Below, piece after piece: positions 3,724 through 19,353 of a stretch of 64,000 bases of DNA. The DNA lies in the NCBI GenBank assembly GCA_029565685.1, contig JAKQNR010000011.1, positions 81,962 through 145,961 of the forward strand, in the 5' to 3' direction. Source of the stretch: a bacterium. GTDB lineage: Bacteria; Zhuqueibacterota; Zhuqueibacteria; Residuimicrobiales; Residuimicrobiaceae. The notes below the pieces were generated by a model. The model was not told the DNA's origin and ran no database searches. It was given only the letters and a program-made list of their open reading frames with translations. Within the stretch, counting starts at the first letter, position 1, and each line of letters opens with the position of its first letter. Made by a program: the position numbers and the translations under genes.

Positions 3724-3746
3724 CGGAAAAGTACAAGGAAAAATCC

Positions 3747-4337
3747 ATGGACCACGAGCGGCTGCAAAGGCAATTGACCTTTATTTTGGAAGCGGACAAG
3801 CTGAAGGGCGTGATTCGTCGGACCTTCGTGCCGGGTCAGGATCGCTATGAGAATTCGGCGGAACACAGCTGGCAGGTGGCGTTGATGGCCTGCATTCTCG
3901 CTGAACACGCGCAACAGCCGGTGGATGCCTGCAAAGTCATGAAGATGATGCTGGTGCACGACCTGGTGGAGATCGACGCCGGCGACACTTATGTATACGA
4001 CGCATCCGCTAACACGGACAAGGCGGAGCGCGAACAAAAAGCGGCGGACCGGCTCTTCGGCCTGTTGCCCGAGGATCAGGCGCAAGAGCTGCGGGCGTTG
4101 TGGGAAGAGTTCGAAGAGCGCAGCACCATGGAGGCTCGATTCGCCCGCAGTCTCGACCGGCTTATGCCCATGTTGCACAATTATCATACCCAGGGCCGCT
4201 CCTGGCTGGAGCACGGCATCAACCGCGAGCAGGTGGAAAAGACCAATGCGATCATGCAAGAGGGTTCCGCGATTCTCTGGGACTATGCGAAAGCGTTGAT
4301 CGATTCTGCAGTGCGGGAAAATTTTTTGCATCCTTGA
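3747..4337 (+). CDS. HD-domain phosphohydrolase (YfbR-like 5'-deoxynucleotidase family)
   Basis: The H...HD signature is present (AEHSWQVALMACIL ... MMLVHDLVEIDAGD). Size is about 196 aa. Confidence 0.65.
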   Translation: MDHERLQRQLTFILEADKLKGVIRRTFVPGQDRYENSAEHSWQVALMACILAEHAQQPVDACKVMKMMLVHDLVEIDAGDTYVYDASANTDKAEREQKAADRLFGLLPEDQAQELRALWEEFEERSTMEARFARSLDRLMPMLHNYHTQGRSWLEHGINREQVEKTNAIMQEGSAILWDYAKALIDSAVRENFLHP

Positions 4338-4369
4338 TCTCCATTATTCCTGCCATTTCCAGAAACCCC

Positions 4370-4398
4370 TTGACTCTCACCTTATATATTATTATATT
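4370..4398 (+). promoter_or_regulatory. Consensus sigma-70-like promoter upstream of arsR (TTGACT-N17-TATATT)
   Basis: TTGACT lies at 4370-4375, followed by a 17-nt spacer and TATATT at 4393-4398. The spacer is AT-rich with partial dyad symmetry (possible ArsR operator). It sits about 15 nt before the arsR ATG, so the leader is very short. Confidence 0.4.
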
Positions 4399-4413
4399 TC
4401 TAAGAATATCGAA

Positions 4414-4776
4414 ATGAATGAGGAAGCTATGCACGAACCAGTGGACCTGCTGAAAGCGATCTCTGATCACGGGAGGTTGCGCATTCTCAAGTTGCTCGAG
4501 ACTCGGAGTCTCTGTGTATGTGAGATCACCGAAATCATCGGATTGGCCACCTCCACCATCTCATCTCACTTGAACCTCTTGAAAAACAGTAGGTTGATTG
4601 AGGATGAAAAGGACGGAAAATGGATCAATTACCGGTTGGCGTCGCCTGCTGATCCTCTGTTCGCCCAGCTCTGGCCTTTGATCTCTAAAAGGCTGGAGTT
4701 GGATCCGGTGGTCGCAGCGGACAAAAAAAAGGCGGCGCAGGTAGATCGTTACAAGATTTGCGGAAATGGAAAGTGA
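4414..4776 (+). CDS. arsR: ArsR/SmtB family metalloregulatory transcriptional repressor
   Basis: It has a winged HTH of ArsR type (LRILKLLETRSLCVCEITEIIGLATSTISSHLNLLKNSRLI) with a CVC metal-binding motif in helix 3. It is the first gene of an ars cluster. Confidence 0.8.
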   Translation: MNEEAMHEPVDLLKAISDHGRLRILKLLETRSLCVCEITEIIGLATSTISSHLNLLKNSRLIEDEKDGKWINYRLASPADPLFAQLWPLISKRLELDPVVAADKKKAAQVDRYKICGNGK

Positions 4777-4784
4777 GGCGACCC

Positions 4785-7223
4785 ATGCTGAACACGGATG
4801 CCTGCGGGAGATCCTTTTGTCCAACTTGTTCCGGATTGCGGCCTTTGCGAATTTTTGTTTTGCTGACCATGGCCCTATTGCCGCTTTCGCTTTTCGCGCA
4901 GGAGTTACGCGGCGGCATCTGTCCGCCTTTTCATCTGTACGATGAACAGGGCGAGATCATTAATCCGGTCCTATCGCCGAATATCTCCCAGCCCTATTCT
5001 CCGCGGCAGACCTGCGGCAAATGTCATGACTATGAAAAGATCACTCAAGGCTATCACTTTCAGCAGGGCAAAGATGAAGTCGCCCCTGCTTTCATGCAGG
5101 AACGATACCGCTGGGTCACCTCGCCCGGTAATTACGGCGGCAACTGGTGTTCGCCCGCTCCCCTTTATCGCAGCCTGGCGCTCAAGAAGAATGAAAAGGC
5201 GCGTCAGATCGACATGACCTCTTTTGAATTCATCACCGCCACCTGCGGCTATTGTCACCCCGGCGGCGGACCAGCGGAGCTGGATCGGGAGGGCAATCGC
5301 TACGATCAGCATATGGCCGATCCTTCCAGCTCAATGACGCCGGGCGGCGACAACGGACTGGACGGCGATTATTACAAAGCTTTCTGGAGTGAAACCGGCG
5401 TGCTCGAAGCGGATTGCATGCTCTGTCATCTGCCGGAATACAACCAAAAAGAACGTCAACATCAAATAGATTTATGGAATTTCCGTTGGGCTGCCACGGC
5501 AGGAGCTCGCTTGGCCAAGGTCGAAGGAAGCATCAAAGATAAAAAGCCGGTGACTCTTGTTTATGATCTTTCTCTATTCGATGCAGAGGGCAGGCTTTCG
5601 GCACATCTCGTACGTGAACCGCGCAACGAAACCTGCTTGACGTGTCATGCCAAGCCGCAGTGGAAAAAGCGCGGCGCCAATTTCACCAGCCGCAGCGATG
5701 TACATATGAAAGCCGGGTTGAAATGTGTGGATTGTCATGCCGCCGGCAGCGCAGCAGCCGATCCGCTTATCCGTGGAAAGGAAGAGCACCAATTCGGCAA
5801 GGGAGACGATCCTTCCGGCCATGTGCGGGATGATCTGGACAACACCATGCGGGATTGCGCTGATTGTCATTTGGATGGGTATCTGAATGCACCACGACCG
5901 AAACACGCGTGGCTGCCGCCTTTGCATCTGAACAAGATCGCCTGTGAAACCTGCCACATCCCGGAGCGCGGATTCAAATCAGCCATGGTGCAGGTCAGCG
6001 ATGCGTATAATCCGGGCCCGAAAATCTCGCCGCCGGCCAAGCATATCTGGACTTTTTATGACGCCAACTTGCAATACTGGAACCATTATGGCGAGCTGGC
6101 ACAATTTAGCGTTGCCGATAAGCCGGTCGTGCCCTACAGGCCGGTTTTGGCGCGTTACAAGGATAAAATTTACCCGGTTAATCGCGTACACAGCGCCTGG
6201 CCCGGCATCGAGGAAGAGGGCAAGCCCGGCTTGAATCAGCCTTTTATGAGAGATGTGTTTGCTATGTGGCAGCGTCACCTGAAAGATCCGCTGCAATTTC
6301 CGCTGTTGGAAAAAATCCGCGATGATAACGGCGACGGCATGCCGGAAGTCAACCGCGATGAAGAGATCGACGCCATGATTGTTTCGCTTCGCGGCTATTT
6401 GCAGCAAACAGGATTCGATCTTTCCGGCAAACGCGTGGTCTGGGTCAATAATGACCTGGTCTATTATTCGGCCGGCGAACACAGGAAGCTCGCCAAAGAG
6501 ACTTTTGAAGCCTCTCCCTATGCTTCGGTATACAAATACTCCCATGACGTTTATCCGGCTCAGGCGGCACTGGGCGTGAATGGCTGCATGGACTGTCATA
6601 GCACGCGCTCCGGCTTTTTTACCGCTCCAGTGGTGCACTATCCTTTCGCAGACGAGGGCAAACCGGTTTATACAGCGCAGTACCGCCTCATGGGGTTGTC
6701 GCCCTGGGCGGTCTATGCCTCTCTCTGGCGAGAAACCTGGATGAAGCCGATTTTTTATCTGGGGATGATTATCCTCTTTATTCTGTTATTGGCCGGCCTG
6801 GGGGATAAACATATTAGAGCCCTGCTGCCTTCAGCTCGCCTGCGCCGGATTATGCTGCCGGGGATCGCCCTGGTCATTGCTTTGGCCATAGGACTTTTTT
6901 ACAGCGCAGCGCCTGAACTGTCCGCTTACATGCTGCCGTCGCGGCTGCAGCTGGACGCCAATCATTTTTATCTGGCAGTCGGCGCCATCCTGATGTCGAT
7001 GCTGGCTCTCCTGGGTTTTCCGGTCGGTGCCGGCAAATTTTTCCGCTTGGCTGAATTCATGCGCTTTATCGCCTGGACCAGCATGGGTTTGTCGGTCGTC
7101 TGCGGTTTGGCAATGCTTTGCGGCAATGGGCGTTGGTGGTACACTTTTTTTGATCTGGGATTGGTGACGATGGTGCTGGCCGCTGCAAAAGGACTGGTCC
7201 TGAAAACCTGGCAGGAAGAGTGA
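4785..7223 (+). CDS. Octaheme c-type cytochrome with signal peptide and C-terminal multi-helix membrane anchor
   Basis: There are eight CXXCH motifs (CGKCH, CGYCH, CMLCH, CLTCH, CVDCH, CADCH, CETCH, CMDCH). A signal-peptide-like segment IFVLLTMALLPLSLFAQE precedes them. The last ~170 aa are strongly hydrophobic, about 4-5 predicted TM helices. The frame runs from TTG 4758, but ATG 4785 is the preferred start, so the overlap with the arsR stop is short. Confidence 0.7.
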   Translation: MLNTDACGRSFCPTCSGLRPLRIFVLLTMALLPLSLFAQELRGGICPPFHLYDEQGEIINPVLSPNISQPYSPRQTCGKCHDYEKITQGYHFQQGKDEVAPAFMQERYRWVTSPGNYGGNWCSPAPLYRSLALKKNEKARQIDMTSFEFITATCGYCHPGGGPAELDREGNRYDQHMADPSSSMTPGGDNGLDGDYYKAFWSETGVLEADCMLCHLPEYNQKERQHQIDLWNFRWAATAGARLAKVEGSIKDKKPVTLVYDLSLFDAEGRLSAHLVREPRNETCLTCHAKPQWKKRGANFTSRSDVHMKAGLKCVDCHAAGSAAADPLIRGKEEHQFGKGDDPSGHVRDDLDNTMRDCADCHLDGYLNAPRPKHAWLPPLHLNKIACETCHIPERGFKSAMVQVSDAYNPGPKISPPAKHIWTFYDANLQYWNHYGELAQFSVADKPVVPYRPVLARYKDKIYPVNRVHSAWPGIEEEGKPGLNQPFMRDVFAMWQRHLKDPLQFPLLEKIRDDNGDGMPEVNRDEEIDAMIVSLRGYLQQTGFDLSGKRVVWVNNDLVYYSAGEHRKLAKETFEASPYASVYKYSHDVYPAQAALGVNGCMDCHSTRSGFFTAPVVHYPFADEGKPVYTAQYRLMGLSPWAVYASLWRETWMKPIFYLGMIILFILLLAGLGDKHIRALLPSARLRRIMLPGIALVIALAIGLFYSAAPELSAYMLPSRLQLDANHFYLAVGAILMSMLALLGFPVGAGKFFRLAEFMRFIAWTSMGLSVVCGLAMLCGNGRWWYTFFDLGLVTMVLAAAKGLVLKTWQEE

Positions 7224-7305
7224 GGGGCGCATCCCCCTTCAATATCCGAGTAACCGAGAGAGCGACCGGCTGTCAACGAGTTCATTTTGCCAGCCCAAAT
7301 GGATG

Positions 7306-7340
7306 CCGGTCGACAGGGTGACAAGTCCTGTCCGGGTTTT
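7306..7340 (+). terminator. Possible intrinsic terminator after the cytochrome gene
   Basis: A hairpin GACAGG-gtgacaagt-CCTGTC, extendable with CCGG/CGGG, is followed by TTTT. The stem is modest. Confidence 0.3.
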
Positions 7341-7474
7341 GCGTTTAACGACAGGAGCGGCGAGGCCTGTTTTTCGATCGACGAACAATATACAAAATCA
7401 AACCGTTAAGCTTTGCACGACTAAACCTTGAGGCCGTACGAACCGGATCACTATGCAAGGAGAGCGACTAGTAA

Positions 7475-8773
7475 ATGAATTGGAATAAAGAACTCAAACC
7501 GTTGTTTTGGATGGTCGGGGCATTCATCTTGCTTTACTATCTGCCCATCGGCACACAAAGATTTGACAATGCCGTCATGGAGGCCTTCCACCTGGTCAAG
7601 TGGTATGCTCGGGAGCATGTCTTGCTGTGTCTGGTGCCAGCTTTTTTCATCGCCGGCGCCATCGGCGTATTTGTCAGCCAGGATTCGGTAATGAGATACC
7701 TCGGGCCGCGCGCCAATAAAGTGCTGGCATACGGCGTCGCTTCGGTATCCGGCACGATTCTGGCGGTGTGCTCCTGCACGGTGTTGCCGCTGTTTTCCGG
7801 TATCTATACCATGGGCGCAGGTTTGGGACCAGCCACGGCCTTCCTCTATTCCGGCCCTGCCATCAACGTACTGGCCATCATTCTCACTGCTCGGATCCTG
7901 GGGCTGGAACTAGGCGTGGCGCGGGCGGTCGGCGCTATCGTCTTTGCGGTCATCATCGGTTTGCTGATGCACTGGATTTTCCGGCATGAAAAAAAGAAAG
8001 AGCACGACGGCCCCGTACAGTTGGATGAATCCAAAGCCGGCCGGCCCTTATGGCAGACGGTGGTTTATTTTTTCCTCATGATCGCCATCCTGGTTTTCGC
8101 CAACTGGGGAAAACCGGAGGAGACGGAAGGCTTCTGGCGCACAGTCTATTCCCTCAAGTGGATCTTGACGGCCTTCAGCGCCTTGGGTCTGGCTGTCGTT
8201 CTGGGATTGTGGTTCAATATCAGCTGGCTTCGTCTTGGTCTGGCTGCGTTGCCGGTGATTCTGCTCGGACTTTTTACCCCGTCCAGCCCGGTCTTGCTCT
8301 TTGCGATCGGTTCCGTCGGCCTGGCCGTTGTCACGGCTGTGGACAAGGGCGAAGCGGGTGATTGGTTTGCCGCTTCCTGGGATTTTGCCAAAAAGATATT
8401 GCCTTTGCTGTTGATGGGCGTGTTCATCGCCGGCATGCTTTTAGGAAGAGTGGGGCATGAAGGAATCGTTCCCTCCGAATGGGTCAACCGGGCCGTCGGC
8501 GGAAACTCCCTCTTTGCCAATTTCTTCGCCTCCATCGCCGGGGCGTTTATGTATTTTGCCACATTGACCGAGGTGCCGATTCTGCAGGGGCTCATCGGCA
8601 GCGGCATGGGCAAAGGACCGGCATTGGCGCTGCTGTTGGCCGGCCCGGCGCTTTCATTGCCGAGTATGTTGGTGTTGCGTTCCGTGATGGGAACTAAAAA
8701 GACGTTTGTTTTCGTGATGCTCGTGGTGATTATGGCGACAATAACCGGCGTGGTTTTTGGCTATTTCTTCTAG
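7475..8773 (+). CDS. arsP: DUF318/YraQ-type permease, ArsP-like (candidate organoarsenical efflux permease)
   Basis: This is a polytopic membrane protein with the conserved CSC motif in a TM helix ([11 protein letters not shown]), as in ArsP/DUF318 permeases (ICSCxxxPL). It lies immediately upstream of arsM and has an AAGGAG RBS. Confidence 0.6.
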
Positions 8774-8789
8774 CGGAGAAAGAAAAAAG

Positions 8790-9596
8790 ATGAATGAAAT
8801 GACAAATGATCAAATTCGCAAGGCTGTGCGACAGCGGTATAGCCTTGCAGCGCAAAAAAGTGAATTCGGATGTGGTTGCGGACCTTCCTGTTGCGGCGGA
8901 GAGGCGCCTGACGAAGGGCATCGGCAGACATCCGCGCGACTGGGATACACCCAGGAAGAACTGGACCAAGTGCCGGCTGGTTCAAACCTGGGCCTTGGTT
9001 GCGGCAATCCACAGGCCATTGCTGCGCTCAAGCCAGGTGAGGTGGTTCTTGATTTAGGCAGCGGCGCCGGTTTTGATTGCTTTCTGGCCGCGCAGCAAGT
9101 GGGTCCTGAAGGATTCGTCATCGGCGTGGACATGACGCCCGAGATGGTGGCCAATGCCCGGGCCAATGCCCAACAGGATGGTTATAAAAATATCTCCTTT
9201 CGCCTGGGCGAGATCGAAGCGCTGCCTGTGGCGAATGAGGCTGTGGATGTGATCATCTCCAACTGTGTGATCAATTTGTCTCCCGACAAAGAGTCGGTCT
9301 TGCGTGAAGCTTTTCGCGTGCTCAAGCCCAATGGCCGACTCGCCATTTCTGATGTGGTGGCTACGGCTGATCTGCCGCAGGAAATTCGCGGCAATCTCGA
9401 TTTATATGCGGCGTGTGCAGCCGGCGCCCTTACTATTTCAGAGTTGGAGAGGCTTCTCAATCGAACCGGTTTTATCGATATAGCGATCACGCCCAAAGAT
9501 GAGAGCCGCGATTTTATTCGGGAATGGGCGCCGGACCGTAATCTGGAGGATTATATTGTTTCGGCGGCCATAACCGCCAGGAAACCACTGCGCTGA
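8790..9596 (+). CDS. arsM: Arsenite S-adenosylmethionine methyltransferase ArsM
   Basis: The SAM-MTase motif I is [13 protein letters not shown]. ArsM-typical cysteine clusters are present: [11 protein letters not shown] near the N-terminus, ISNCVINLS and AACAAG. The start is chosen at ATG 8790, which has a GGAGAAAG RBS. An upstream TTG at 8757 is an alternative. Confidence 0.85.
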
Positions 9597-9638
9597 ACGA
9601 AATTTTCGCACTGATTCTCATTTCAAATTCGAGGACCT

Positions 9639-10688
9639 ATGGGCACCGCAAAAAAATTATCCTTTCTGGATCGCTACTTGACGATCTGGATTTTTCTAAC
9701 CATGATCGCCGGCGTCTTGGCCGGCTATTTTTCGCCCTCCATCACCGGTTTTTGGGATCAGTTTAAATCCGGCACCACCAACATCCCCATCGCCGTGGGC
9801 TTGATCCTGATGATGTATCCACCGCTGGCCAAAGTGCGCTATGAGGAATTGGGCAAGGTATTCCGCAATTATAAAGTGCTGGCGCTTTCACTGGTGCAGA
9901 ATTGGGTGGTCGGCCCTGTTCTGATGTTCTTGCTGGCGATCGTTTTTCTTCGCAGCTACCCCGAATACATGGTGGGGCTCATTCTGATCGGACTGGCCCG
10001 CTGCATCGCCATGGTCATCGTCTGGAACGAATTGGCTCAGGGCGATACCGAGTATTGTGCCGGTCTGGTGGCGCTCAACTCGATCTTTCAGGTGTTTTTC
10101 TATTCGATCTATGCCTGGATTTTCATCACCGTGTTGCCGACTCTAGTCGGCCTGAAAGGGATGGAGGTTCACATCACCATCGGGCAGATCGCCAAAAGTG
10201 TGTTCATCTATCTGGGCATTCCATTTCTCGCCGGCCTGTTCACTCGCTTTATTCTCATTCGCATGAAAGATAAAAAATGGTATCATGAGCGGTTCATCCC
10301 CAAAATCAGTCCGTTGACGCTGATAGCCCTGTTGTTCACTATTTTCGTCATGTTCTCGCTCAAGGGCGATTACATCGTCCGGCTGCCGTTGGATGTGCTG
10401 CGCATCGCGGTTCCGCTGATGATCTATTTTATCGTGATGTTTCTTATTTCTTTCTATATGAGTCATCGCGCCGGCGCCGGCTATGGTCAATCGACTACGC
10501 TGTCCTTCACCGCCTCCAGCAATAATTTCGAGCTGGCCATCGCCGTCGCCATTGCGGTGTTCGGCATCAACAGCGGTGAAGCGTTTGCAGCAGTCATTGG
10601 TCCGTTGGTGGAAGTGCCGGTGCTGATCGGATTAGTCAATGTCGCACTGCGAATTAAACAAAAATACTATAAAGGAGATGCCCGATGA
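9639..10688 (+). CDS. acr3: ACR3-family arsenite efflux transporter
   Basis: The N-terminus [25 protein letters not shown] is characteristic of ACR3. The protein has about 10 TM helices and is 349 aa. Confidence 0.85.
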
Positions 10689-10921
10689 TCGTGCAGGTAT
10701 TAGGAATGGGTTGCGCAAAATGCAATACCCTGGAAGCCAAAGTAAAAGAAGTGGCTGAAAAAAACAACATCGAGTTCGTTTTCGAAAAAGTGACCGATTT
10801 TAAAAAAATCATGGACTATAAGGTGATGATGACCCCCGCCCTGGTGGTGGATGGGGTCGTCAAATGTTACGGCCGCATTCCCAAAGAGGACGAGTTGCTC
10901 AAATGGCTTAAAGGAGAATAG
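10685..10921 (+). CDS. Small cytoplasmic thioredoxin-fold protein (redox-active disulfide protein 2-like)
   Basis: The 78-aa protein has a CxxC in MGCAKCNT near the N-terminus. Proteins of this type are common in ars operons. Confidence 0.65.
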
Positions 10922-10922
10922 A

Positions 10923-11339
10923 ATGAAACGAAGCGCCCTCATTGTCATCTTGTTATGCATCCACTCAATTTGGGGCTGCGAAAGCGGCGGTTCCAGTGAT
11001 TCGGTCGCTCAAGGCAAGAAAGATTCCAGTCAGGTCAAGGTAACTTTTGTCGAATTGGGCTCGGTTAACTGTATTCCCTGCAAAGCGATGCAGCCGGTGA
11101 TGAAAGCGATCGAGGACAAGTACGGCGACCAAATCAAGATCGTTTTTTACGATGTCTGGAAACCGGATCAGAAAAAATACGCCCAGCAATACAAAATTCG
11201 CCTCATCCCTACTCAGATATTCCTCGATGCAAAAGGCCGGGAGATCTTTCGCCATGAAGGCTTTTTCCCTGAAGCGGAAATTGATAAATTGCTGCAATCC
11301 CATGGCCTGAAACCCGTTAAAAAGGAAAACAAGACGTGA
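10923..11339 (+). CDS. Exported thioredoxin-family protein (TlpA/ResA-like), probable lipoprotein
   Basis: The start is ATG 10923, preceded by an AAAGGAG RBS. A signal peptide with lipobox-like IWGC is followed by a thioredoxin fold with the CIPC active site. Confidence 0.65.
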   Translation: MKRSALIVILLCIHSIWGCESGGSSDSVAQGKKDSSQVKVTFVELGSVNCIPCKAMQPVMKAIEDKYGDQIKIVFYDVWKPDQKKYAQQYKIRLIPTQIFLDAKGREIFRHEGFFPEAEIDKLLQSHGLKPVKKENKT

Positions 11340-12043
11340 TCGACAGTCTGTTCAGTTATCTCAGCGGGCTCATGGCGTCCAGTTTTTCTCTGGCCTTGTT
11401 GGCGGCTCTGGTATGGGGGGTAATGAGTATTTTACTCAGCCCCTGCCATCTCTCCAGCATCCCGCTGATCATCGGCTATATCACCAGCCGTGAGAGCAGG
11501 AGCGCGCGGCACTCTTTTGCTCTGGCTTTGGTTTTCGCTTTGGGCATCCTTCTCACCATCGCGCTGGTGGGCATTGTCACTGCCTCTTTGGGCCGGTTGA
11601 TCGGCGATGTGGGCATCTGGGGCAATATCCTCGTCGCTGCTATTTTCATCGTCATGGGACTCTATCTGCTGGATGTGATTTCCCTGAATTGGAACAGTCT
11701 GCCGGCATCCTCCAGTAAATCCGGGTATTGGGGCGCCTTTGGATTGGGTTTGATCTTTGGTATCGGACTCGGTCCTTGCACCTTTGCCTATTTAGCCCCT
11801 GTGCTGGGCATTGTCTTCAGCCTGGCGCAGAGCGGCTGGCTCAAGCCCGTTCTGCTTATTCTTGCTTTTGCGATCGGTCATTGTGCGGTCATCGCACTGG
11901 CCGGCGGATTGGGCCAATGGGTGCAAGACTATTTGAATTGGAGTTCACAATCGCGAGCCGCCGGGCTTGTCAAAAAGATCGCGGGCGTATTGGTATTGTT
12001 GGGCGGAGTCTATTTCATATTTACTGCATTTGTGCAAAGATAG
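11336..12043 (+). CDS. ccdA: CcdA/DsbD-family transmembrane thiol-disulfide electron transporter
   Basis: There are six hydrophobic helices. Conserved cysteines sit in TM1 (LSPCHLSSIP) and TM4 (GLGPCTFAY). The GTG start overlaps the previous stop. Confidence 0.7.
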   Translation: MIDSLFSYLSGLMASSFSLALLAALVWGVMSILLSPCHLSSIPLIIGYITSRESRSARHSFALALVFALGILLTIALVGIVTASLGRLIGDVGIWGNILVAAIFIVMGLYLLDVISLNWNSLPASSSKSGYWGAFGLGLIFGIGLGPCTFAYLAPVLGIVFSLAQSGWLKPVLLILAFAIGHCAVIALAGGLGQWVQDYLNWSSQSRAAGLVKKIAGVLVLLGGVYFIFTAFVQR

Positions 12044-12075
12044 AACAGAATTAAAATAGACGGAGAAAAAAATAG

Positions 12076-12447
12076 ATGGCTGAGACTATGATCGGCATTG
12101 TCGCCTGCTCCGGCGCCTCCAATACCGGACATTATTCCGACATCGTGGCGCGCAAACTGGTAAAATCAGGCAAGGCCAGGATGCTGTGTCTTGCCCGGTT
12201 CGCTGTTGATGAGGATTTCGCCGAGAAATCAAAATTGGAATTTACTGATCTGGTGGTTCTGGATGGCTGTCCCATCAATTGCGCTGAAAAAATACTTCAG
12301 CAACGCGGGATTGCTCAATTTCAGCATATCAATACCACCGATTTCGGCATCATCAAGGGTCAGACGCCCGTCACGGAGCAAAAAGTCGATGAGATAGTCG
12401 AACACATCCGCTCCTCTGCCGCGATCAAAATGTCGCCGGAACAGTGA
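12076..12447 (+). CDS. DGC-domain putative zinc-binding protein
   Basis: It contains the motif VVLDGCPINCAEK and an N-terminal Cys. Small DGC proteins recur in ars islands. The call is made from motif memory only. Confidence 0.45.
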   Translation: MAETMIGIVACSGASNTGHYSDIVARKLVKSGKARMLCLARFAVDEDFAEKSKLEFTDLVVLDGCPINCAEKILQQRGIAQFQHINTTDFGIIKGQTPVTEQKVDEIVEHIRSSAAIKMSPEQ

Positions 12448-12631
12448 GATCTTAATGAAGATAATTCAGCATACGCCTGCTGCAAAATGGACTGGCCTAT
12501 TGCTTTCCACTGTGAAAATTTAAGTAAAAGGCGTAATGAAAGATATTTTAGAATGCAAGATTGCCAATCAGAAATGGCGTGCAACCATTCAACAGTGCAG
12601 CAAAGTAGATGCCGGAGGATAAGATCCTGCC

Positions 12632-13555
12632 ATGGAATCTAGCGATTTAGCCGCAGCCGATGAACACCAAGACCTCGCAAAAAGCCTCGGGGTTTCCATT
12701 CTTCTTAACGCTTTTATTTTTCTTGTAGAGCTTGTCGGCGGAATACTCACTAACAGTCTTGCTCTCATTTCCGACTCTTTCCATAATCTCAGCGATTTTT
12801 TCGCGTTAATATTGAGCTACCTGGCTTCAAAAGTTGTCCGGTGGAAATCAAATTCGGAAAAATCGTATGGCTATGTGCGAGTTGAAATCTTCGTCGCGTT
12901 CATCAACGCCATGGCGCTGATGCTGATCGGGATGTATGTTATTTATGAAGGAATCCGACGGTTTGCACATCCAGAGCCTATCGCAGGCGGTTGGATGCTT
13001 CTCATTGGCGTCATTGGTCTCGTTGTCAATACGGCGGCCACTCTCTTATTAAAGACACACGCGAGCCATGATCTCAATATGAAAAGCGCCTACCTGCATC
13101 TTCTTACCGATGCTCTCGAATCACTCGCGGTTGTCGTCGTTGCAGGATTTATAGCGTGGAAAGATTGGCGTCTGCTCGATCCGCTTATGTCACTGGCCAT
13201 CGGGTTGTTTATCATTAAAAGCGCGTGGAGCATCGTTGCGGAGACGGTCCACCTTCTGACCGAGGGAACCCCACGAGGGATCAATTTGGAGAAAGTAGCA
13301 GCATTTATCCAATCCTTTCCCGGAGTAGAGAATGTGCATCATCTGCATATTTGGGGATTATCGTCTCGAGTGCGGGCCTTAAGCGCTCACATTGTAGTGC
13401 GGGATCAATTGATCAGCAAAACAAATTTAATCAGCACCCAATTGGGAGAAGCGTTGGAACATCGCTTTGGCATTAATCATCCTACGCTTCAGTTTGAATC
13501 TTCGGTCTGTAAAGATCAGGGAGTGATCGTGGATATAAATCATACCGAGCGATAA
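12632..13555 (+). CDS. Cation diffusion facilitator (CDF/CzcD-like) metal efflux transporter
   Basis: There are six N-terminal TM helices with the HxxxD-type motifs FHNLSD and HLLTDA. A C-terminal cytoplasmic domain is present with HHLHIWG. Confidence 0.8.
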   Translation: MESSDLAAADEHQDLAKSLGVSILLNAFIFLVELVGGILTNSLALISDSFHNLSDFFALILSYLASKVVRWKSNSEKSYGYVRVEIFVAFINAMALMLIGMYVIYEGIRRFAHPEPIAGGWMLLIGVIGLVVNTAATLLLKTHASHDLNMKSAYLHLLTDALESLAVVVVAGFIAWKDWRLLDPLMSLAIGLFIIKSAWSIVAETVHLLTEGTPRGINLEKVAAFIQSFPGVENVHHLHIWGLSSRVRALSAHIVVRDQLISKTNLISTQLGEALEHRFGINHPTLQFESSVCKDQGVIVDINHTER

Positions 13556-13601
13556 AACAAGCTCGCTCAAAAAGTATTTTACTAAGGAAAGGGAAATTGC
13601 C

Positions 13602-14213
13602 ATGTTTACCATTCCAGAATGGACGTTTGAATTTCACGGACACCGTTGTCCTTTCATGCCTATCGGTTACAGGATGGGCGCATTGATGCTGAATACTCTT
13701 GAAGTGCCAAGAGCGCAGGATCATGACTATTTCATGTTTGCGGAGCTCGGCGTCGGCCATCCGCAAACTTGCATGATGGATGGGCTTCAGGCATCAACCG
13801 GATGCACCTATGGCAAGTTGATGATCGAACGGCAGAACTTTGGAAAACTTGCCGCGACACTCTGGGCGCCTGCGAAAGGCGGCGTCCGCATCGCCGTCAA
13901 ACCCGAATTTACAGATGCCCTCGGCGGTTATGAATTCTTCACCTTCAGAAAAAAAGGGGTCGAGCCATCGCAAATTCCGGAACCCGTTCGCCTCGAAGTG
14001 ATTCAAAAAGTACTCAGCGCACCAGACGACGAGATGTTCACGGTAAAGCTAATTCCCGACTTAAAACACAAAAAGATTTCCGGTTCGTTCAATAAAGGCA
14101 AGTGCGAAGTGTGCGGCGAATATGTCTTCGAGCGGTATCTTCGTAAAAAAGATGGAAAGCATGTCTGCATTCCTTGTTCCGGCCATGAACCTTCTGTTTA
14201 CGGACAGAAATAG
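13602..14213 (+). CDS. FmdE-family protein (copy 1)
   Basis: The N-terminal HGHRCPFMPIGYRMG motif and the C-terminal C-x2-C...C-x2-C knuckle CEVCGEY...CIPCSG match the FmdE/FwdE-like family. Confidence 0.65.
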   Translation: MFTIPEWTFEFHGHRCPFMPIGYRMGALMLNTLEVPRAQDHDYFMFAELGVGHPQTCMMDGLQASTGCTYGKLMIERQNFGKLAATLWAPAKGGVRIAVKPEFTDALGGYEFFTFRKKGVEPSQIPEPVRLEVIQKVLSAPDDEMFTVKLIPDLKHKKISGSFNKGKCEVCGEYVFERYLRKKDGKHVCIPCSGHEPSVYGQK

Positions 14214-14227
14214 AGGAGCCGGACAAA

Positions 14228-15007
14228 ATGGATATGAATTCAGCGCTTCTGTTGGCGATCTTTTTTTCGTTTCTGATTGCTTTTATATTCTCGATGTTTG
14301 GCCAGGGCGGAGGATCGGTTTACTCCCCATTGCTGATTCTGCTTGGCTACGCGGTGCTGATTTCTACTTCTACCTCTTTGGTGCTGAATCTCATCACATC
14401 GATATCCGCTGGTTATGTTTTTTACAAGAACAAGATGATTGACTTTAAAGCATCGTTCATGTTTGTACCAGGCATCGTTCTTGGCGCCTTCGTTGGAGGA
14501 GCGATATCAAAATATATTAATACCAATGTTTTATTATGGTTGTTCGTGTTTTTCCTGATTTTTCTGGGAGGGCGGATGATCTATGGCTATTGGGAAAAAG
14601 TGAAGGCGGAGGAGAAGCGTCCTAAAAACCTGTCCATGACCAGCTATGTGATTATTGTAATTTTCAGTCTTGGTGTTGGTATCGTTTCCGGCTTGTTAGG
14701 CGTCGGCGGCGGAATTTTGATCGTACCGTTTATGACCTATCTCCTCAAATATCCAACCAAGTTCGCAGCGGGTTCATCGCATCTGATTATATCCTTTTCA
14801 GCACTTGCAGGAATATTAGGTCATGCGACATCTCACCAGCTCGATTATCCCTTGATTGCTGCGACCGGTGTCGCCGTTCTTATAGGAGGAAATCTTGGCG
14901 CAAGATTCAGCCTGAGAGTAAAGCCCATGATGATAAAGCTAGGACTCGGTCTTTTAATGTGGGCGCTGTCCGCTCAGCTCCTGTTAAAACTATTAGGAAG
15001 ACTGTGA
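14228..15007 (+). CDS. TauE/SafE-family membrane transporter
   Basis: A duplicated 4-TM architecture carries Gly-rich motifs (GQGGGSVYSPLL, GVGGGILIVPF). Confidence 0.7.
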   Translation: MDMNSALLLAIFFSFLIAFIFSMFGQGGGSVYSPLLILLGYAVLISTSTSLVLNLITSISAGYVFYKNKMIDFKASFMFVPGIVLGAFVGGAISKYINTNVLLWLFVFFLIFLGGRMIYGYWEKVKAEEKRPKNLSMTSYVIIVIFSLGVGIVSGLLGVGGGILIVPFMTYLLKYPTKFAAGSSHLIISFSALAGILGHATSHQLDYPLIAATGVAVLIGGNLGARFSLRVKPMMIKLGLGLLMWALSAQLLLKLLGRL

Positions 15008-15122
15008 GTAATTGACGGCTTGGAGCCGGCTTGGGAGAGCAATTGAAGCGGTAAAAGATAAGCAGAGGTATACAGCAAGTTAACAAACAATATTCTAATT
15101 AAATAAGTTATGGAGTGCGTTC

Positions 15123-15725
15123 ATGATTGATCCACAAGAATGGTTGGATTTCGGGCAAAAATTTCATGGCCACAAGTGCCCCGCCATGCCCATGGGGTTG
15201 CGTGCGGCAGCTGCAGCCATGAATGCACTTGGCGTGGAAAGAACTGGCGACAGCGCCCTTTTGGCCTTAGTGGACCTTGGCGATGATCATTGCGCCACCT
15301 GCTATGGCGACGGAATTCAAGTGCTAACCGGATGCACTTTGGGCAAAGGAAATATCAAAAAGACCCATAAAGGCAAATGGGCTCTCACCTTGATCGACAA
15401 AAAGTCCAAGCGTGCCGTGCGCGTGACGCCGAAAGCAGAAGCGATGCTGGCTAACAAAGAATCCGCATTTTTCAAAGATTATCGCGAAAAGGGTGTTCCC
15501 CCCACAAAAGTCCCGGATGAGGTCGTGGAGCCTCTGGTTCAGCGGGTGATGAATGCACCGCAAGAGATGATTCTGATCGTCTCGGAAGTGCAACCCTATG
15601 TTCTGGAAGAACCACCCCATAGCTTTAACAGTTTTGTTTGCGAAAGCTGCGGTGAGATGGTGGTTGAAGAATATGCTCGCGTTCGATCCGGCAAAAAAGT
15701 TTGTATCGACTGCGCGCAGAAATAA
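15123..15725 (+). CDS. FmdE-family protein (copy 2)
   Basis: The motifs HGHKCPAMPMGLRAA and C-terminal CESCGEM...CIDCAQK identify it as a paralog of the 13602 gene. Confidence 0.65.
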   Translation: MIDPQEWLDFGQKFHGHKCPAMPMGLRAAAAAMNALGVERTGDSALLALVDLGDDHCATCYGDGIQVLTGCTLGKGNIKKTHKGKWALTLIDKKSKRAVRVTPKAEAMLANKESAFFKDYREKGVPPTKVPDEVVEPLVQRVMNAPQEMILIVSEVQPYVLEEPPHSFNSFVCESCGEMVVEEYARVRSGKKVCIDCAQK

Positions 15726-15726
15726 A

Positions 15727-15763
15727 GTGAAAAGCCGAGGTGAGTGCCTCGGCTTTTCACTTT
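15727..15763 (+). terminator. Rho-independent terminator
   Basis: A perfect 14-bp inverted repeat GTGAAAAGCCGAGG/CCTCGGCTTTTCAC with loop TGAGTG is followed by TTT. It lies directly after the FmdE stop. Confidence 0.6.
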
Positions 15764-16073
15764 CCCGCGCTCTTTTGAGGAGTCTAGATGTGATTGCGAA
15801 TGACTTTTCGGGCTGAATTTCGATCCCCCTTTTAGGCTTGGCGCAAACCGCTGTTTCTTTTCTAGTCTGTTCGGAAACATTCGTTATCGTATCAAAAAAG
15901 CAAAATGATAACGCTAGGAATTCTAGCGACTGCCGGTCCATCGGCACGCTTGATGACGTCATGCTGCTGCAGAGTTATCTTGGGGCTCACCAACTCAATG
16001 GAAGTCCCTTCAGGCAATTCGTTTTACTTCTGTAACACATTTAATATTAATAAAGCTAAGATAGGTATTCCCT

Positions 16074-17276
16074 ATGAAAATTCTCATTCTTTGTACCGGC
16101 AATTCCTGCCGCAGCCAGATGGCAGAGGGCTTGCTGCGGTCGTTTGATCCGGGGCTGGAGGTTTTTTCCGCTGGGACAGAGCCGGCAGCCGTTGTGCATC
16201 CATTGGCGATACAAGTGATGGCGGAGCTGGGCATTGATATCTCCCAGGCAAAGCCCAAACGAGCCGATCAATTTTTGCACGATGATTTTGATTATGTCAT
16301 AACCGTCTGCGATCACGCCAACGAAACCTGTCCGGTATTTCTGGGCCCGGTGCGGCATCGGCTTCATATCGGCTTTGAGGATCCGGCCAAAGTTACAGGC
16401 AGTAACGAGTTCATATTGGACGAGTTCCGCCGCATACGCGATGAAATCCGTGTCAAGTTTGACGACCTTTATCGCCAGCAGATTCGGAAGGAAATGACAA
16501 CGTGCGATAAATCTTTGGGTTTCATCGGCGCCGGCCGTGTGGCTCGAATCCTGCTGGAGGGGTTCAAGCGGGTGAACGGGCCGATGCAAGATATTTTCGT
16601 CAGCGATATCAATCCTAAAGTCATGACCGATCTGCAAAACAAATACCCCTACATCAAAACGACCGATAATCCGGCGGAGGTCGCCCGGCAGGACTATGTG
16701 TTTTTGGCACTGCATCCTCCAGCCATTCCGGCTGGAATGGAGGCAATCAAAAATGGTCTTAAAAAAGAGGCTGTGGTCATCTCGCTGGCGCCCAAAGTCA
16801 CGACTGAACGGTTGACGGCCGGACTGGACGGCTTTAATCGCATCGCCCGCTGGCTTCCTACTGCCGCAACATTTATTGGCAAAGGCTACAATCCTTGTTT
16901 TTATTCCCCCCATCTCTCATCTGCTGAACAGGCATCTCTAACAGCATTATTTTCCAGCGTAGGTGGATGCATAAGGGTCGCGGAAGATAAGATCGAAGCC
17001 TATGCCATGATTATCACCATGGGTCCGACCTATTTCTGGTTTCAGTGGCAACAATTGTTTGAATTGGGTAAAACCTTCGGTTTGTCCGAAGAAGAATTGA
17101 AATCAGGATTGCCGGCCATGCTGAAAGGAGCGATAGAGATATTCTATCATTCCGGGTTGACTCCTGAGCAAGTGAACGATCTCATTCCGGTCCGACCTCT
17201 GGCTGAAGACGAAGCGGCCTTCAAGGCCGCTTATCAAACCAGACTGACCGCCCTGTTTCATAAATTAAAGAAATAG
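16074..17276 (+). CDS. arsC: Fusion of a thioredoxin-coupled arsenate reductase (LMW-PTP family ArsC) with a pyrroline-5-carboxylate-reductase-like NAD(P)-binding domain
   Basis: The N-terminal ~140 aa carry the CX5R P-loop ILILCTGNSCRSQMAEG plus downstream Cys residues, as in Trx-type ArsC. The C-terminal ~260 aa carry the Rossmann motif LGFIGAGRVARILLEGF and align in order with ProC blocks (VVISLAPKVT; NRIARWLPTAATFIGKG; ITMGPTYFWF...). Confidence 0.6.
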   Translation: MKILILCTGNSCRSQMAEGLLRSFDPGLEVFSAGTEPAAVVHPLAIQVMAELGIDISQAKPKRADQFLHDDFDYVITVCDHANETCPVFLGPVRHRLHIGFEDPAKVTGSNEFILDEFRRIRDEIRVKFDDLYRQQIRKEMTTCDKSLGFIGAGRVARILLEGFKRVNGPMQDIFVSDINPKVMTDLQNKYPYIKTTDNPAEVARQDYVFLALHPPAIPAGMEAIKNGLKKEAVVISLAPKVTTERLTAGLDGFNRIARWLPTAATFIGKGYNPCFYSPHLSSAEQASLTALFSSVGGCIRVAEDKIEAYAMIITMGPTYFWFQWQQLFELGKTFGLSEEELKSGLPAMLKGAIEIFYHSGLTPEQVNDLIPVRPLAEDEAAFKAAYQTRLTALFHKLKK

Positions 17277-17331
17277 CGCAAAGGATATCGACACATTTAT
17301 AAAATGTTCAACAACAAAAGAGGAAAGACAA

Positions 17332-17742
17332 GTGGACGACTCCAGGGAATGGCGCTGGTTGAAAGGGGGGATCCTGACCTCTCTGTTATCGGTGGTCACC
17401 TATTTTATTTTTAGTGCGATCACGGAACGCCACGATGCCTTCGGCATTACAGCTGGATTCGGTTGCATGACCGCGGCATTCGGAAAGTTATTCACAGGAC
17501 TCTGCGACAATTCCGCCATCCTGAGATTTGGAAACCAGTTGAACGCCTTTATAGAGTTCTTTACGTTAATAGGATTGATTGTCGTCGGGTTCACGGCCAC
17601 AAAGCTTTCCAAAATGTTTTCTTTGGAATGGAATTCTGCTGCGTGGCAAAAATACCATGGGAATAGTGCTTTCAAAGCAGATAGGCGATCGGATGGGCAA
17701 TCTGCATCCGATCGTCATCACTTTATCCGGAGGGGGCGTTGA
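17332..17742 (+). CDS. Hypothetical small membrane protein
   Basis: There are two or three hydrophobic segments and no recognisable motif. The coding call rests only on the ORF and on spacing before the next gene. Confidence 0.2.
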   Translation: MDDSREWRWLKGGILTSLLSVVTYFIFSAITERHDAFGITAGFGCMTAAFGKLFTGLCDNSAILRFGNQLNAFIEFFTLIGLIVVGFTATKLSKMFSLEWNSAAWQKYHGNSAFKADRRSDGQSASDRHHFIRRGR

Positions 17743-19094
17743 TGCGATTTGTCCGGGCTGACATCTCGTTGCTTGTGTTATCCTTGCTGAACGCGTCCTT
17801 CGCACAAAACAGATCATCGGACTGGTCGGCCGATGGCAGTCTTCGATACCGTTTGGAAAAATATGAGGGTTATAATGCCAGGAATTACGGCGTTCAGGGT
17901 TCTGATGCATTGGGAGGGTTGGATGATGCCGTTCTTTTGCAGCGCCTGATTTTGGGTTTATCGGGACATGTCGGCCATCGGATGATGCTCGCCGTGCATC
18001 TTCAGGACAGCCGGGCTTTCGGCTGGTCTCTTCGCAACAGCCAAGAACCCGAAGCATTCCGCATGGGGGATAAGAGCGGAAAAAATTTTTACATCATGAA
18101 TCCACAGGAAGAGTTTTTTGAATTTCACGATGCCTATTTACAGATCTTAAATCCTTTTCCCCATGCGGTCCTGACGTTCGGCCGGCAAAAAATCTTTTGC
18201 GCAGATTATCGCATTTTCGGACCTGGAGACTGGGGCAACACCGGGCGCTGGACATGGGATGCGCTCCGAATACATTGGCAGCGGAATAATCTCTCTGCGG
18301 ATGCATGGGCCGGAGGCACTAAAACCCACGATCCGCAAAAAATTTCCTTTCCTTTTTTCCAGACAGAGTTTTTCGGCGGCGGCTTTTACGGCTCTTATAA
18401 GATAAAAGCCACCTCGGTTGATCTGTTCGCGGCTGTCAAGAAGCCTGGCAGCGCGGAGTATATAAAAAACCAAAGCTTTGCTCGCTATTGGTCCGGCCTC
18501 CGCCTTGACCATAGTGCGTCGCAGGGCGCCGTATACGAGGTCAGCTATACAAAAGGTTTTGGCGATCAAGCCCACAAGACGATCAACTCGTATGGTCTCT
18601 TTGCCAAGGCCGGTTGGTCGATTGGATCTTTGGCGTGGAGACCCGTAATAAGCGCGCGATATTCATATGCGAGTGGAGACGATCCCCGGACAAAAGCCCT
18701 CGAGAGTTTTGATCCGGTCTACGGCGCCGGCGACAAATATTATGGCTGGATGAATTTAGTCCAATGGAGCAATCTGGACGATCGGGAGATCATGCTGGAA
18801 CTTTTTCCTAATGCGGATGCCCGCATCGAAATTAAGTTTAATCGTTTTTCCGCGCCTCATTACGCGACCCCGGTCAATGGTACTTTGGTGATTCCTTCAG
18901 GCAAAAGTCGGTTGGGGGATGAAATGGATATTTTTGCTCGATATCCTATCTTTAAATCGCTCTATTGCACTCTGGCTTTCGGTTGGTTCATACCCCACGA
19001 AGCCCGGCTTATAAATGGCGGGATTCCAACGCAGGCGCTTTGGGGCGCTTGGCAAATGGAATATCGTTTTAGTCGACGGCTGAACTGTTTTTAG
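17739..19094 (+). CDS. Outer-membrane beta-barrel, alginate-export (AlgE-like) family candidate
   Basis: A signal peptide ending SFAQ is present. The alternating aromatic-rich pattern, the SLRYRLEKYEG motif and the C-terminal Phe suggest a porin of the alginate-export type. Confidence 0.4.
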   Translation: MMRFVRADISLLVLSLLNASFAQNRSSDWSADGSLRYRLEKYEGYNARNYGVQGSDALGGLDDAVLLQRLILGLSGHVGHRMMLAVHLQDSRAFGWSLRNSQEPEAFRMGDKSGKNFYIMNPQEEFFEFHDAYLQILNPFPHAVLTFGRQKIFCADYRIFGPGDWGNTGRWTWDALRIHWQRNNLSADAWAGGTKTHDPQKISFPFFQTEFFGGGFYGSYKIKATSVDLFAAVKKPGSAEYIKNQSFARYWSGLRLDHSASQGAVYEVSYTKGFGDQAHKTINSYGLFAKAGWSIGSLAWRPVISARYSYASGDDPRTKALESFDPVYGAGDKYYGWMNLVQWSNLDDREIMLELFPNADARIEIKFNRFSAPHYATPVNGTLVIPSGKSRLGDEMDIFARYPIFKSLYCTLAFGWFIPHEARLINGGIPTQALWGAWQMEYRFSRRLNCF

Positions 19095-19353
19095 CGAGTC
19101 TGCGGTTCAGAAATGAAGAATTGCTCATCCTACCAAAGGCGGAAATAATATGAAAATTTTCCTAGTGCACAAACCACCGCCTTTCGCGATGGTGCTTGAC
19201 TTGACGCGCCGGTAATTCCTATCGCCGCCAAACGGCGCAGGAATGGCCGAAATCCTTAGGTCCCCCCGCCTGCAGGCCTTTTCCGCCGGTTTCGGGATTA
19301 AATTCGTAGGCACTTATTCCGTATTTACCAGGAACAGTTTTGAAAGGAAATCG

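Follow-up and report, generated by a model that had tools for sequence, protein, structure and literature searches.

An ArsR-fronted arsenic-resistance island with an octaheme cytochrome and a fused ArsC, a probable representative of an extended ars cluster recurring across bacterial phyla

Introduction

Canonical ars operons, such as arsRBC and arsR-acr3-arsC-arsM, hold three to six genes. Arr, Arx and Aio, which are periplasmic, quinone-linked molybdenum enzymes, are often encoded beside ars operons. The locus described here lies in a stretch of 64,000 nucleotides from a bacterium of the family Residuimicrobiaceae (contig JAKQNR010000011.1 of assembly GCA_029565685.1, positions 81,962 to 145,961; the whole stretch is hereafter called the window), in which the region 4370-20073 of the plus strand is, judged by its predicted gene content, an arsenic-resistance island fronted by arsR. 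Like the canonical operons, the island encodes an ArsR with a Cys-Val-Cys motif, Acr3, a thioredoxin-type ArsC, ArsM and ArsP. Unlike them, it consists of 18 genes on one strand with at least 11 extra families interleaved, and its ArsC is displaced to a putative second unit and fused to a P5CR-like domain.

CcdA, thioredoxin, Trx3 and ArsP have already been reported as ars-operon content (Castillo and Saier 2010, PMC2963123), and the contiguous, overlapping genes trx3-trxL-ccdA of the island (10685-12043) are the same three-family set; this triad and arsP are known accessory ars content. The 2010 paper makes no mention of a cytochrome, a P5CR-like protein, a porin or FmdE/TauE, all of which are present in the island. 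No ars-operon link of the octaheme cytochrome (hereafter Cyt8), the P5CR-like protein (P5CRL), the AlgE-like porin or FmdE/TauE was found in the full-text literature, most subscription journals lying outside the search. An earlier account of the window, made from its letters and open reading frames (hereafter the preliminary description), had set the cytochrome, the CcdA thiol relay, the paired FmdE proteins and the fused reductase apart as non-canonical; among the extra genes, CcdA, thioredoxin, Trx3 and ArsP were known before. Cyt8, P5CRL and the other extra genes are probably, from their genomic context, undescribed parts of bacterial arsenic handling.

Results

Recurrence of the island gene set across phyla

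The island appears to represent a type of extended ars cluster that recurs across phyla, for the most part in lineages that are anaerobic or facultative, a reading to which we give a probability of roughly 0.75. The genes of the island that were followed in other genomes are the following:

4432-4776, plus strand: arsR, an ArsR/SmtB repressor (HTH_5) with Cys-Val-Cys in the DNA-binding helix
4785-7223, plus strand: cyt8, an octaheme c-type cytochrome (8 CXXCH motifs) fused to a 5-helix C-terminal membrane domain
7475-8773, plus strand: arsP, an ArsP_1-family permease with a vicinal Cys-Ser-Cys motif (PF03773, 1.9e-77)
8790-9596, plus strand: arsM, an arsenite S-adenosylmethionine methyltransferase (NF008823)
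9639-10688, plus strand: acr3, an arsenite efflux transporter (TIGR00832)
10685-10921, plus strand: trx3, a small thioredoxin-like protein of the MTH895/ArsE family (TIGR00412) with the CxxC motif CAKC
10923-11339, plus strand: trxL, an exported thioredoxin, possibly a lipoprotein, with the CxxC motif CIPC (Thioredoxin_2/Thioredoxin Pfam matches)
11336-12043, plus strand: ccdA, a CcdA/DsbD-type transmembrane thiol-disulfide electron carrier with two Pro-Cys motifs (PF02683, 3.5e-10)
12076-12447, plus strand: a DGC-domain protein (PF08859, 6.7e-25)
12632-13555, plus strand: a ZitB-like CDF-family divalent-cation efflux transporter (TIGR01297, 255.7 bits against a cutoff of 82)
13602-14213, plus strand: fmdE copy 1, an FmdE-domain protein with a C-terminal zinc ribbon (PF02663, 1.2e-25, and zf-dskA_traR)
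14228-15007, plus strand: a TauE/SafE (TSUP) anion transporter (PF01925, 2.1e-45)
15123-15725, plus strand: fmdE copy 2, an FmdE-domain protein with a C-terminal zinc ribbon (PF02663, 6.4e-30)
16074-17276, plus strand: a thioredoxin-type (LMWP) ArsC fused to a P5CR-like NAD(P)-binding reductase, P5CRL (LMWPc and F420_oxidored)
17739-19094, plus strand: an AlgE-like (Alginate_exp) outer-membrane beta-barrel porin (PF13372, 5.6e-30)

All the genes named in the preliminary description were recovered on the plus strand, at the reported positions, by open reading frame listing and by Pfam/NCBIfam profile searches. The array of about 13 kb that it reported is real, but it does not end at 17276; on the same strand it runs on to about 20073, adding the AlgE-like porin, a DUF6951 protein and a YedF-like protein.

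Loci encoding Cyt8 were collected from one genome per species; 238 were obtained and the best 80 of them used, in which all window proteins were searched by tblastn. Genes within 10 kb of cyt8 were counted as neighbours; many of the contigs were short, and the 33 of the 80 loci in which cyt8 is flanked by 5 kb or more on either side served as a long-flank subset. By record title the 80 loci came from at least 14 phylum-level lineages, with Bacteroidota, Ignavibacteriota, Acidobacteriota, Planctomycetota, Nitrospirota, Latescibacterota, Desulfobacterota, Myxococcota, Verrucomicrobiota, Hydrogenedentota, Armatimonadota, Sumerlaeota, Chloroflexota and Leptospiraceae represented. The neighbours of cyt8 were:

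trx3: 40 of 80 loci, the most frequent neighbour, 6 directly adjacent
arsP: 39 of 80 loci, 8 directly adjacent
acr3: 32 of 80 loci, 4 directly adjacent
P5CRL: 27 of 80 loci, 18 directly adjacent
ccdA: 27 of 80 loci, 7 directly adjacent
trxL: 26 of 80 loci, 6 directly adjacent
arsR: 24 of 80 loci, 4 directly adjacent
AlgE-like porin: 24 of 80 loci, 10-11 directly adjacent
ArsC: 24 of 80 loci, 1 directly adjacent
arsM: 16 of 80 loci, 2 directly adjacent
DGC: 16 of 80 loci, 4 directly adjacent
CDF: 14 of 80 loci, 3 directly adjacent
FmdE: 13 of 80 loci, 4 directly adjacent
TauE: 9 of 80 loci, 0 directly adjacent

More than 85 % of the neighbours share the strand of cyt8. Window genes from outside the island, which served as negative controls, were found near cyt8 twice (SpoU) or not at all (HD, PD40 and radical-SAM). 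In the long-flank subset acr3, arsM or arsC was present in 20 of the 33 loci, and any of these or arsR/arsP in 27, while at least one of the accessory families of the window was present in 32. The acr3 homologues in the 32 loci were 65-77 % identical to that of the window, and of the 33 homologues of ArsR in the cyt8 loci 25 have a C-V/L-C motif of the kind carried by As(III)-sensing repressors.

The closest relative (81 % identity) preserves the order arsR-cyt8-arsP-trx3-arsM, with the same genes on either side. A Rikenellaceae locus (L019) and an Ignavibacteriales locus (L088) share 13-14 families with the island in a different order, the latter in one array of 13 genes, ArsR-ArsC-Trx3-Acr3-ArsP-TauE-porin-FmdE-cyt8-CDF-Trx3-Trx-CcdA. 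A Myxococcales contig (L087) carries ArsR-Acr3-ArsM-ArsC-ArsD and ArsP-DGC-AlgE-cyt8, and next to these TauE-FmdE and a second ArsR-ArsP-Trx3-DGC-CcdA set. Cultivable bacteria that carry this type of cluster include Ignavibacterium album, Draconibacterium orientale and Desulfonema limicola. Because gene order varies and identities are 40-75 %, the recurrence does not stem from one recent element counted repeatedly. The preliminary description had named synteny in relatives as a check on its proposed linkage, which scattered genes would have spoken against; the genes are not scattered, the same families co-occurring within a few kb on the same strand, and this cross-phylum synteny, which places each accessory family beside ars genes in many unrelated genomes, supports the suggestion that the non-canonical genes may be functionally integrated with the ars core.

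A further neighbour of cyt8, which is not present in the window, is a rhodanese-like protein of 141 amino acids, encoded a median of 26 bp from cyt8 in 21 of the 80 loci (for example L017 12333-12767 and L019 14422-14847). Its catalytic Cys is mostly replaced by Asp, and it has a conserved C-terminal SGSCMCQ (CxC) tail, which makes it a candidate As(III)-binding partner.

The octaheme cytochrome Cyt8

None of the curated Pfam and NCBIfam families claims Cyt8, and its profile gave no real match to PDB by sequence. The best structural match is the octaheme tetrathionate reductase OTR (1sp3), at 20 % identity, with MccA also among the matches. All eight heme sites of the octaheme tetrathionate reductase model TIGR04315 are present, and the score against that model, 37 bits, lies far under its cutoff of 375. 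Unlike OTR, MccA and the NrfA-HAO superfamily, Cyt8 contains an additional beta-rich domain, at about residues 400-630, and a 5-helix anchor of its own; compared with OTR and other octaheme enzymes, its heme motifs are all plain CXXCH and it has two invariant non-heme cysteines, C46 and C122. Its genomic context is arsenic, compared with sulfur or nitrogen respiration for these enzymes.

More than 1100 homologues of Cyt8 were found, 800-850 residues long and 52-60 % identical to it, none of them informatively named. Conservation across phyla is high, with a mean column identity of 57 % and about 120 invariant positions. The eight CXXCH motifs are invariant in 78 homologues, as are seven further histidines besides the two cysteines; in a WKKRG loop after heme 4, W293, K294, K295 and G297 are invariant, and R296 is so only in a smaller alignment of 20 sequences.

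The topology of the membrane domain was predicted from hydrophobic segments and the positive-inside rule. Five residues of its periplasmic face (R649, E650, K654, D724 and H727) are invariant and three (R720, Y786 and D790) nearly so, and no conserved residue faces the cytoplasm. This pattern would look like that of a quinol site on the periplasmic side or of a docking surface for the heme domain. Since the conserved polar residues are all on the periplasmic side, electron input from a cytoplasmic partner is disfavoured, and because a single His is invariant the anchor is not a di-heme b domain. The predicted anchor suggests the (mena)quinol pool as the most likely partner of Cyt8 in electron exchange; the carriers of Cyt8 are mostly menaquinone-using anaerobes. 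Thermodynamically, transfer from quinol to a periplasmic oxyanion is more plausible for such a protein than oxidation of arsenite. A STEAP-like conduit, in which electrons would pass from P5CRL through the membrane domain of Cyt8 to the hemes, was considered and rejected, with the invariant polar residues being periplasmic and none lying on cytoplasmic loops, and P5CRL being linked to ars genes without cyt8.

Cyt8 resembles NrfH/CymA, ImcH and CbcL in joining a periplasmic multiheme domain to a membrane segment with conserved polar residues on the periplasmic side. No sequence or Pfam relation to these proteins was detected, and unlike them Cyt8 has a C-terminal anchor of five helices and is linked to ars genes rather than to genes of metal or nitrogen respiration. 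The niche of Arr, Arx and Aio is one that Cyt8 could occupy, as a heme-only protein in an island that encodes no molybdopterin subunit.

The recurrent anion porin beside cyt8 points to an anionic substrate, for example arsenate or thioarsenate. In the Ignavibacteriales locus L088 (8285-9268) the AlgE-like porin is replaced by one of the phosphate-selective porin family Porin_O_P, a type which clustering of the neighbours placed in four cyt8 loci. The OTR-like fold and partners with a sulfur flavour (TauE, DsrE-like, CMD and rhodanese-like proteins) would equally keep a sulfur-compound substrate in play.

The spacer between cyt8 and arsP is 251 bp, compared with 82 bp in the relative with 81 % identity, and the approximately 165 extra bases (7224-7388, plus strand) include the hairpin GGGGCGCATCCCC immediately 3' of the cyt8 stop codon.

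The ArsC-P5CRL fusion and the P5CRL family

The fusion is encoded by an uninterrupted open reading frame of 400 codons. At least six contigs from four data sources encode the 400-residue form, which rules out an assembly artefact. In the NCBI annotation of 16074-17276 the last 260 amino acids alone are given, as an NAD(P)-binding domain-containing protein (HPN35553.1). The ArsC part has the CX5R loop CTGNSCRS and the Cys-X6-Cys motif CDHANETC within residues 7-86, and matches PF01451 at 3.4e-18.

P5CRL shares with true ProC the fold and a GxGxxG NAD(P) site. Its score against the ProC equivalog model TIGR00112 is 99.3 bits, under the cutoff of 196.75, and solved P5CRs are matched only at an E-value of about 1e-15. 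The family has invariant motifs of its own, among them DLIPVKPL, which replaces the substrate loop of ProC, SPGGTT. By these sequence comparisons the P5CRL family is not ProC. The fusion is rare, with about 17 protein clusters, and stand-alone P5CRL proteins of about 259 residues number thousands.

P5CRL was also sampled independently of cyt8, by genome look-ups (n = 5) and by a metagenome scan that gave 41 loci of at least 5 kb. All five genomic copies were inside arrays led by arsR, two of them being fusion homologues. A KSB1 array had the order ArsR-ArsC-P5CRL-Acr3-Trx3-Trx-CcdA-ArsP, and those of the fusion homologues ArsR-[ArsC-P5CRL]-Acr3-Trx3-Trx-CcdA-ArsP-CDF-DUF6951. In the metagenomes 35 of the 41 loci had ars genes and only 8 had cyt8; Trx3 was directly upstream of P5CRL in most loci and ArsC often directly downstream, giving the usual order Trx3-P5CRL-ArsC. 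P5CRL is linked to ars genes in its own right.

The conserved Trx3-P5CRL-ArsC order together with the fusion suggests that P5CRL serves ArsC. The order mimics the dedicated supply line from NADPH through a redoxin to ArsC of arsT/arsX, which are thioredoxin reductase and thioredoxin genes of actinobacterial ars operons, and the most economical guess, by this analogy, is that P5CRL passes NAD(P)H-derived electrons through Trx3. Unlike the thioredoxin reductase arsT, P5CRL is not a flavoprotein.

In one KSB1 metagenome-assembled genome (L086, 4469-8774) proB and proA lie directly upstream of arsR-arsC-P5CRL-acr3, which is either a coincidence or a hint of a link between P5CRL and the proline pathway.

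Arsenic core genes and thiol relay

Several of the family assignments exceeded curated cutoffs. ArsR matched the winged-helix domain PF01022 at 1.7e-14 and NF033788 with 81.9 bits (cutoff 55), and has the Cys-X-Cys As(III) site in the sequence SLCVCEI, without the third Cys of the R773 type. Its start is the second ATG (4432), because a 1-nt indel in the relative with 81 % identity puts the first ATG out of frame. ArsP scored 260.8 bits against PF03773 (cutoff 32.3) and contains the motif AVCSCT, a vicinal cysteine pair in a TM helix. The score of ArsM was 363.6 bits against NF008823 (cutoff 263), and its conserved cysteines are present in an N-terminal Cys cluster and in the motifs NCVINLS and YAACAAG. 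Acr3 reached 458.8 bits against the equivalog model TIGR00832, the cutoff of which is 282.8.

Trx3 belongs to the family which NCBIfam names MTH895/ArsE (TIGR00412; 100.9 bits, cutoff 62), with GCAKC at its N-terminus. The N-terminus of TrxL resembles a signal peptide and ends in IWGC. The CcdA-like protein scored 55.4 bits against NF040495, the model of the DsbD_TM-like aromatic-arsenical efflux permease ArsG, under the cutoff of 200, and fits a CcdA/DsbD_TM protein carrying two Pro-Cys motifs better than an ArsG equivalog. The names ArsE and ArsG in NCBIfam derive from the Shewanella ArsEFG system. The possibility that CcdA and TrxL are mere maturation factors of Cyt8 was rejected, the trx3-trxL-ccdA triad being found in ars operons that lack cyt8.

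Accessory genes

The CDF transporter scored 199 bits against the ZitB model, under its cutoff of 408. The nearest solved structure to FmdE copy 2 is 2gvi, a protein of unknown function, and the copy is 60-68 % identical to those in 10 cyt8 loci. Pairs of FmdE and TauE recur both near cyt8 and near P5CRL.

The frame of the DGC gene contains no further stop for 61 codons past its TGA (12445-12633, plus strand), and these codons are Cys-rich (8 Cys). An open reading frame of 49 amino acids from an internal ATG (12487-12633, plus strand), with no family match, may be a small Cys-rich peptide or a chance occurrence. Selenoprotein read-through of the stop codon was rejected, as the frame beyond it has no family match and the DGC protein is already full length.

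Past 17276 the array contains, in addition to the porin gene:

17332-17742, plus strand: a 136-aa hydrophobic open reading frame, an uncertain gene with no Pfam/NCBIfam match
19354-19692, plus strand: a DUF6951 Cys-rich protein (PF22263, 2.8e-25)
19741-20073, plus strand: a DsrE-like protein matching the C-terminal half of YedF (TIGR03527)

The hydrophobic open reading frame had no homologue in the 80 cyt8 loci. DUF6951 recurs at the ends of ars arrays (L089, L144 and L057). The match to TIGR03527 was 115.4 bits against a cutoff of 110, at model positions 85-194 only, the TusA-like N-terminal domain being absent.

Promoter, operator region and transcription units

The signals predicted in the island were:

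4370-4398, plus strand: a sigma-70-like promoter upstream of arsR, TTGACT-N17-TATATT, with 10 of 12 consensus positions
15724-15763, plus strand: an 18-bp hairpin (dG -29.5 kcal/mol), a probable intrinsic terminator or processing site closing the first unit

The promoter had been noted in the preliminary description and is the best promoter-like match within 3500-20500; as a class such sites are not enriched in these 17 kb (15 observed, 16 expected). The spacer had also been called dyad-rich, which found no support: it holds no inverted repeat of 8 nt or more, and short AT-rich pseudo-palindromes only. The segment 4366-4431 is nearly identical in the relative with 81 % identity (2 mismatches), with the sequence upstream diverged, and is the probable ArsR operator region. 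A second ArsR operator was sought by local alignment of the arsR promoter region with all other intergenic gaps, and nothing rose above background.

From arsR to the ArsC-P5CRL gene the intergenic distances are 8, 251, 16, 42, -4, 1, -4, 32, 184, 46, 14, 115 and 348 bp. The tight spacing and overlaps described earlier are thus correct for most genes, two junctions overlapping by 4 bp, but three gaps measure 184-348 bp; a third overlapping junction, between the small hydrophobic open reading frame and algE, is located past 17276. The hairpin 3' of fmdE copy 2 is strong (z -8.0; none of 200 shuffled sequences equally stable), in line with the terminator which had been reported there, but its U-tract is weak (UUUCCC). 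No convincing terminator was found after the YedF-like gene at the end of the array (20073). The island probably consists of at least two predicted transcription units, from arsR to fmdE copy 2 and from ArsC-P5CRL onward, because of the strong hairpin at 15724-15763 and the 348-bp gap. No Rfam RNA elements were found in 4000-20500, even at E ≤ 1.

Sequence flanking the island

A selenocysteine tRNA gene (24943-25033, minus strand; RF01852, 71.5 bits) lies 5 kb 3' of the island, and the organism thus decodes UGA as selenocysteine. A fluoride riboswitch (RF01734, 55.6 bits; 26032-26091) is upstream of crcB (25550-25933) and a DUF190 gene (25205-25546, minus strand), the whole (25205-26091, minus strand) being a standard fluoride-resistance unit. 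The region 26614-49407 encodes three very large secreted proteins of 1228, 1019 and 1580 amino acids, of BNR, subtilase and InlB-B-repeat types, two of which have FlgD_ig C-terminal domains, and is followed by a Flp/Tad pilus gene set.

Discussion

In the mechanism that we propose, binding of As(III) at the Cys-Val-Cys motif of ArsR would derepress the promoter at 4370-4398. In the cytoplasm the ArsC domain would reduce As(V), the dedicated redoxin Trx3 would re-reduce ArsC, and the P5CR-like domain would supply NAD(P)H-derived reducing power, as the Trx3-P5CRL-ArsC order and the fusion suggest. Acr3 would export As(III), ArsM methylate it, and ArsP export trivalent organoarsenicals. In the envelope CcdA would hand reducing equivalents to the exported thioredoxin, and Cyt8 would catalyse a redox reaction of an anionic arsenic or arsenic-sulfur species in the periplasm, with its substrate entering through the outer membrane via the AlgE-like porin. 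The CDF, FmdE, TauE, DGC, DUF6951 and YedF-like proteins would be accessory parts for the handling of metals and sulfur anions. The most plausible arsenic activity of Cyt8 may be that of an Arr-independent arsenate or thioarsenate reductase fed by a dedicated anion porin. That Cyt8 is a heme-only, quinol-linked periplasmic arsenic oxidoreductase and that P5CRL and Trx3 together provide a flavin-free, NAD(P)H-dependent recharge of ArsC is, with both parts taken jointly, a tentative proposal that we hold at clearly less than even odds.

Several observations weigh against these interpretations. Cyt8 is not obligatorily linked to ars genes, because 6 of the 33 long-flank loci have no ars gene within 10 kb. 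The ArsC domain scored 116.9 bits against the equivalog model TIGR02691, under the cutoff of 174.3; by its sequence it is a divergent or fused form of the LMWP-type ArsC. We know of no precedent for flavin-free disulfide reduction by enzymes of the P5CR fold, and the role given to P5CRL would be chemically unprecedented. The GC content is 47-50 % over 10000-18000, whereas the first third of the island has 54 % and the flanks have 56-59 %, and parts of the island may have separate histories, with its back half possibly differing in origin. No second copy of the ArsR operator was found before the second unit. Finally, OTR as the nearest structural relative and the rhodanese-like, TauE, DsrE-like and CMD partners point to sulfur chemistry.

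The last of these points underlies the alternative that survives best, although we regard it as unlikely, namely that Cyt8 is a reductase of sulfur compounds (tetrathionate, polysulfide, sulfite or thioarsenate) like OTR and MccA, with the TauE, porin, rhodanese-like and DsrE-like proteins as partners. The benefit under arsenic would then be indirect, for example through sulfide or thiol-stress handling that sequesters periplasmic As(III). The structural matches to OTR and MccA and the weak match to TIGR04315 agree with such an enzyme, but the relation to OTR is distant, as the 20 % identity and the score of 37 bits (cutoff 375) show. The rhodanese-like protein is the tightest partner of cyt8, in 21 loci, but has mostly lost its catalytic Cys; and although TauE, YedF/DsrE-like and CMD/AhpD-like proteins occur in the neighbourhood, the dominant neighbours (acr3, arsM, ArsC and ArsR of the Cys-Val-Cys type) are arsenic-specific, and the phosphate-selective type of porin beside cyt8 in L088 fits an arsenate-like oxyanion.

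It is improbable that Cyt8 and the CcdA/thioredoxin genes serve instead to protect or back up periplasmic thiols and c-type cytochrome maturation or respiration under As(III). As(III) attacks vicinal thiols, CcdA with an exported thioredoxin is the classical apocytochrome-reducing pair, and CcdA and thioredoxin genes are contiguous with cyt8 in many Ignavibacteriota loci. However, CcdA, TrxL and Trx3 occur in ars operons without cyt8, both in our analysis and in PMC2963123, and the conservation of Cyt8 and its own quinol-type anchor resemble those of an enzyme rather than of a spare carrier. Chance juxtaposition of an ars operon, a respiratory cytochrome, a Zn/sulfite transport module and a proline-pathway gene without shared function would agree with the three gaps of 184-348 bp, the strong internal hairpin, the heterogeneous GC content and the lack of a second ArsR operator in the other intergenic gaps, but is very improbable when the same families co-recur in at least 14 phylum-level lineages in varying order, the control genes do not, and about 17 protein clusters contain the fusion of ArsC with P5CRL.

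For the respirers of arsenate that lack arr (Anaeromyxobacter PSR-1 and Melioribacter roseus) the activity has been ascribed to molybdoenzymes like Ttr and Psr, and not to Cyt8.

At present Arr, Arx, Aio and ArsC are credited with the redox cycling of arsenic in anoxic soils, aquifers and sediments, and surveys count only those markers. If Cyt8 acts on arsenic, a widespread activity is being missed by such surveys, and Cyt8 would add a third kind of enzyme to those known for arsenic redox chemistry, the molybdenum enzymes and the thiol-based ArsC. If the proposed role of P5CRL is true, it would be a new ars gene; the ArsC-P5CRL fusion, as a Rosetta-stone link, opens the reductant supply of thioredoxin-type ArsC in these lineages to direct testing. 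Even if Cyt8 should not be active on arsenic, cyt8, P5CRL, the AlgE-like porin, the FmdE-TauE pair and the rhodanese-like CxC protein are candidate ars genes, with cultivable carriers and clear assays.

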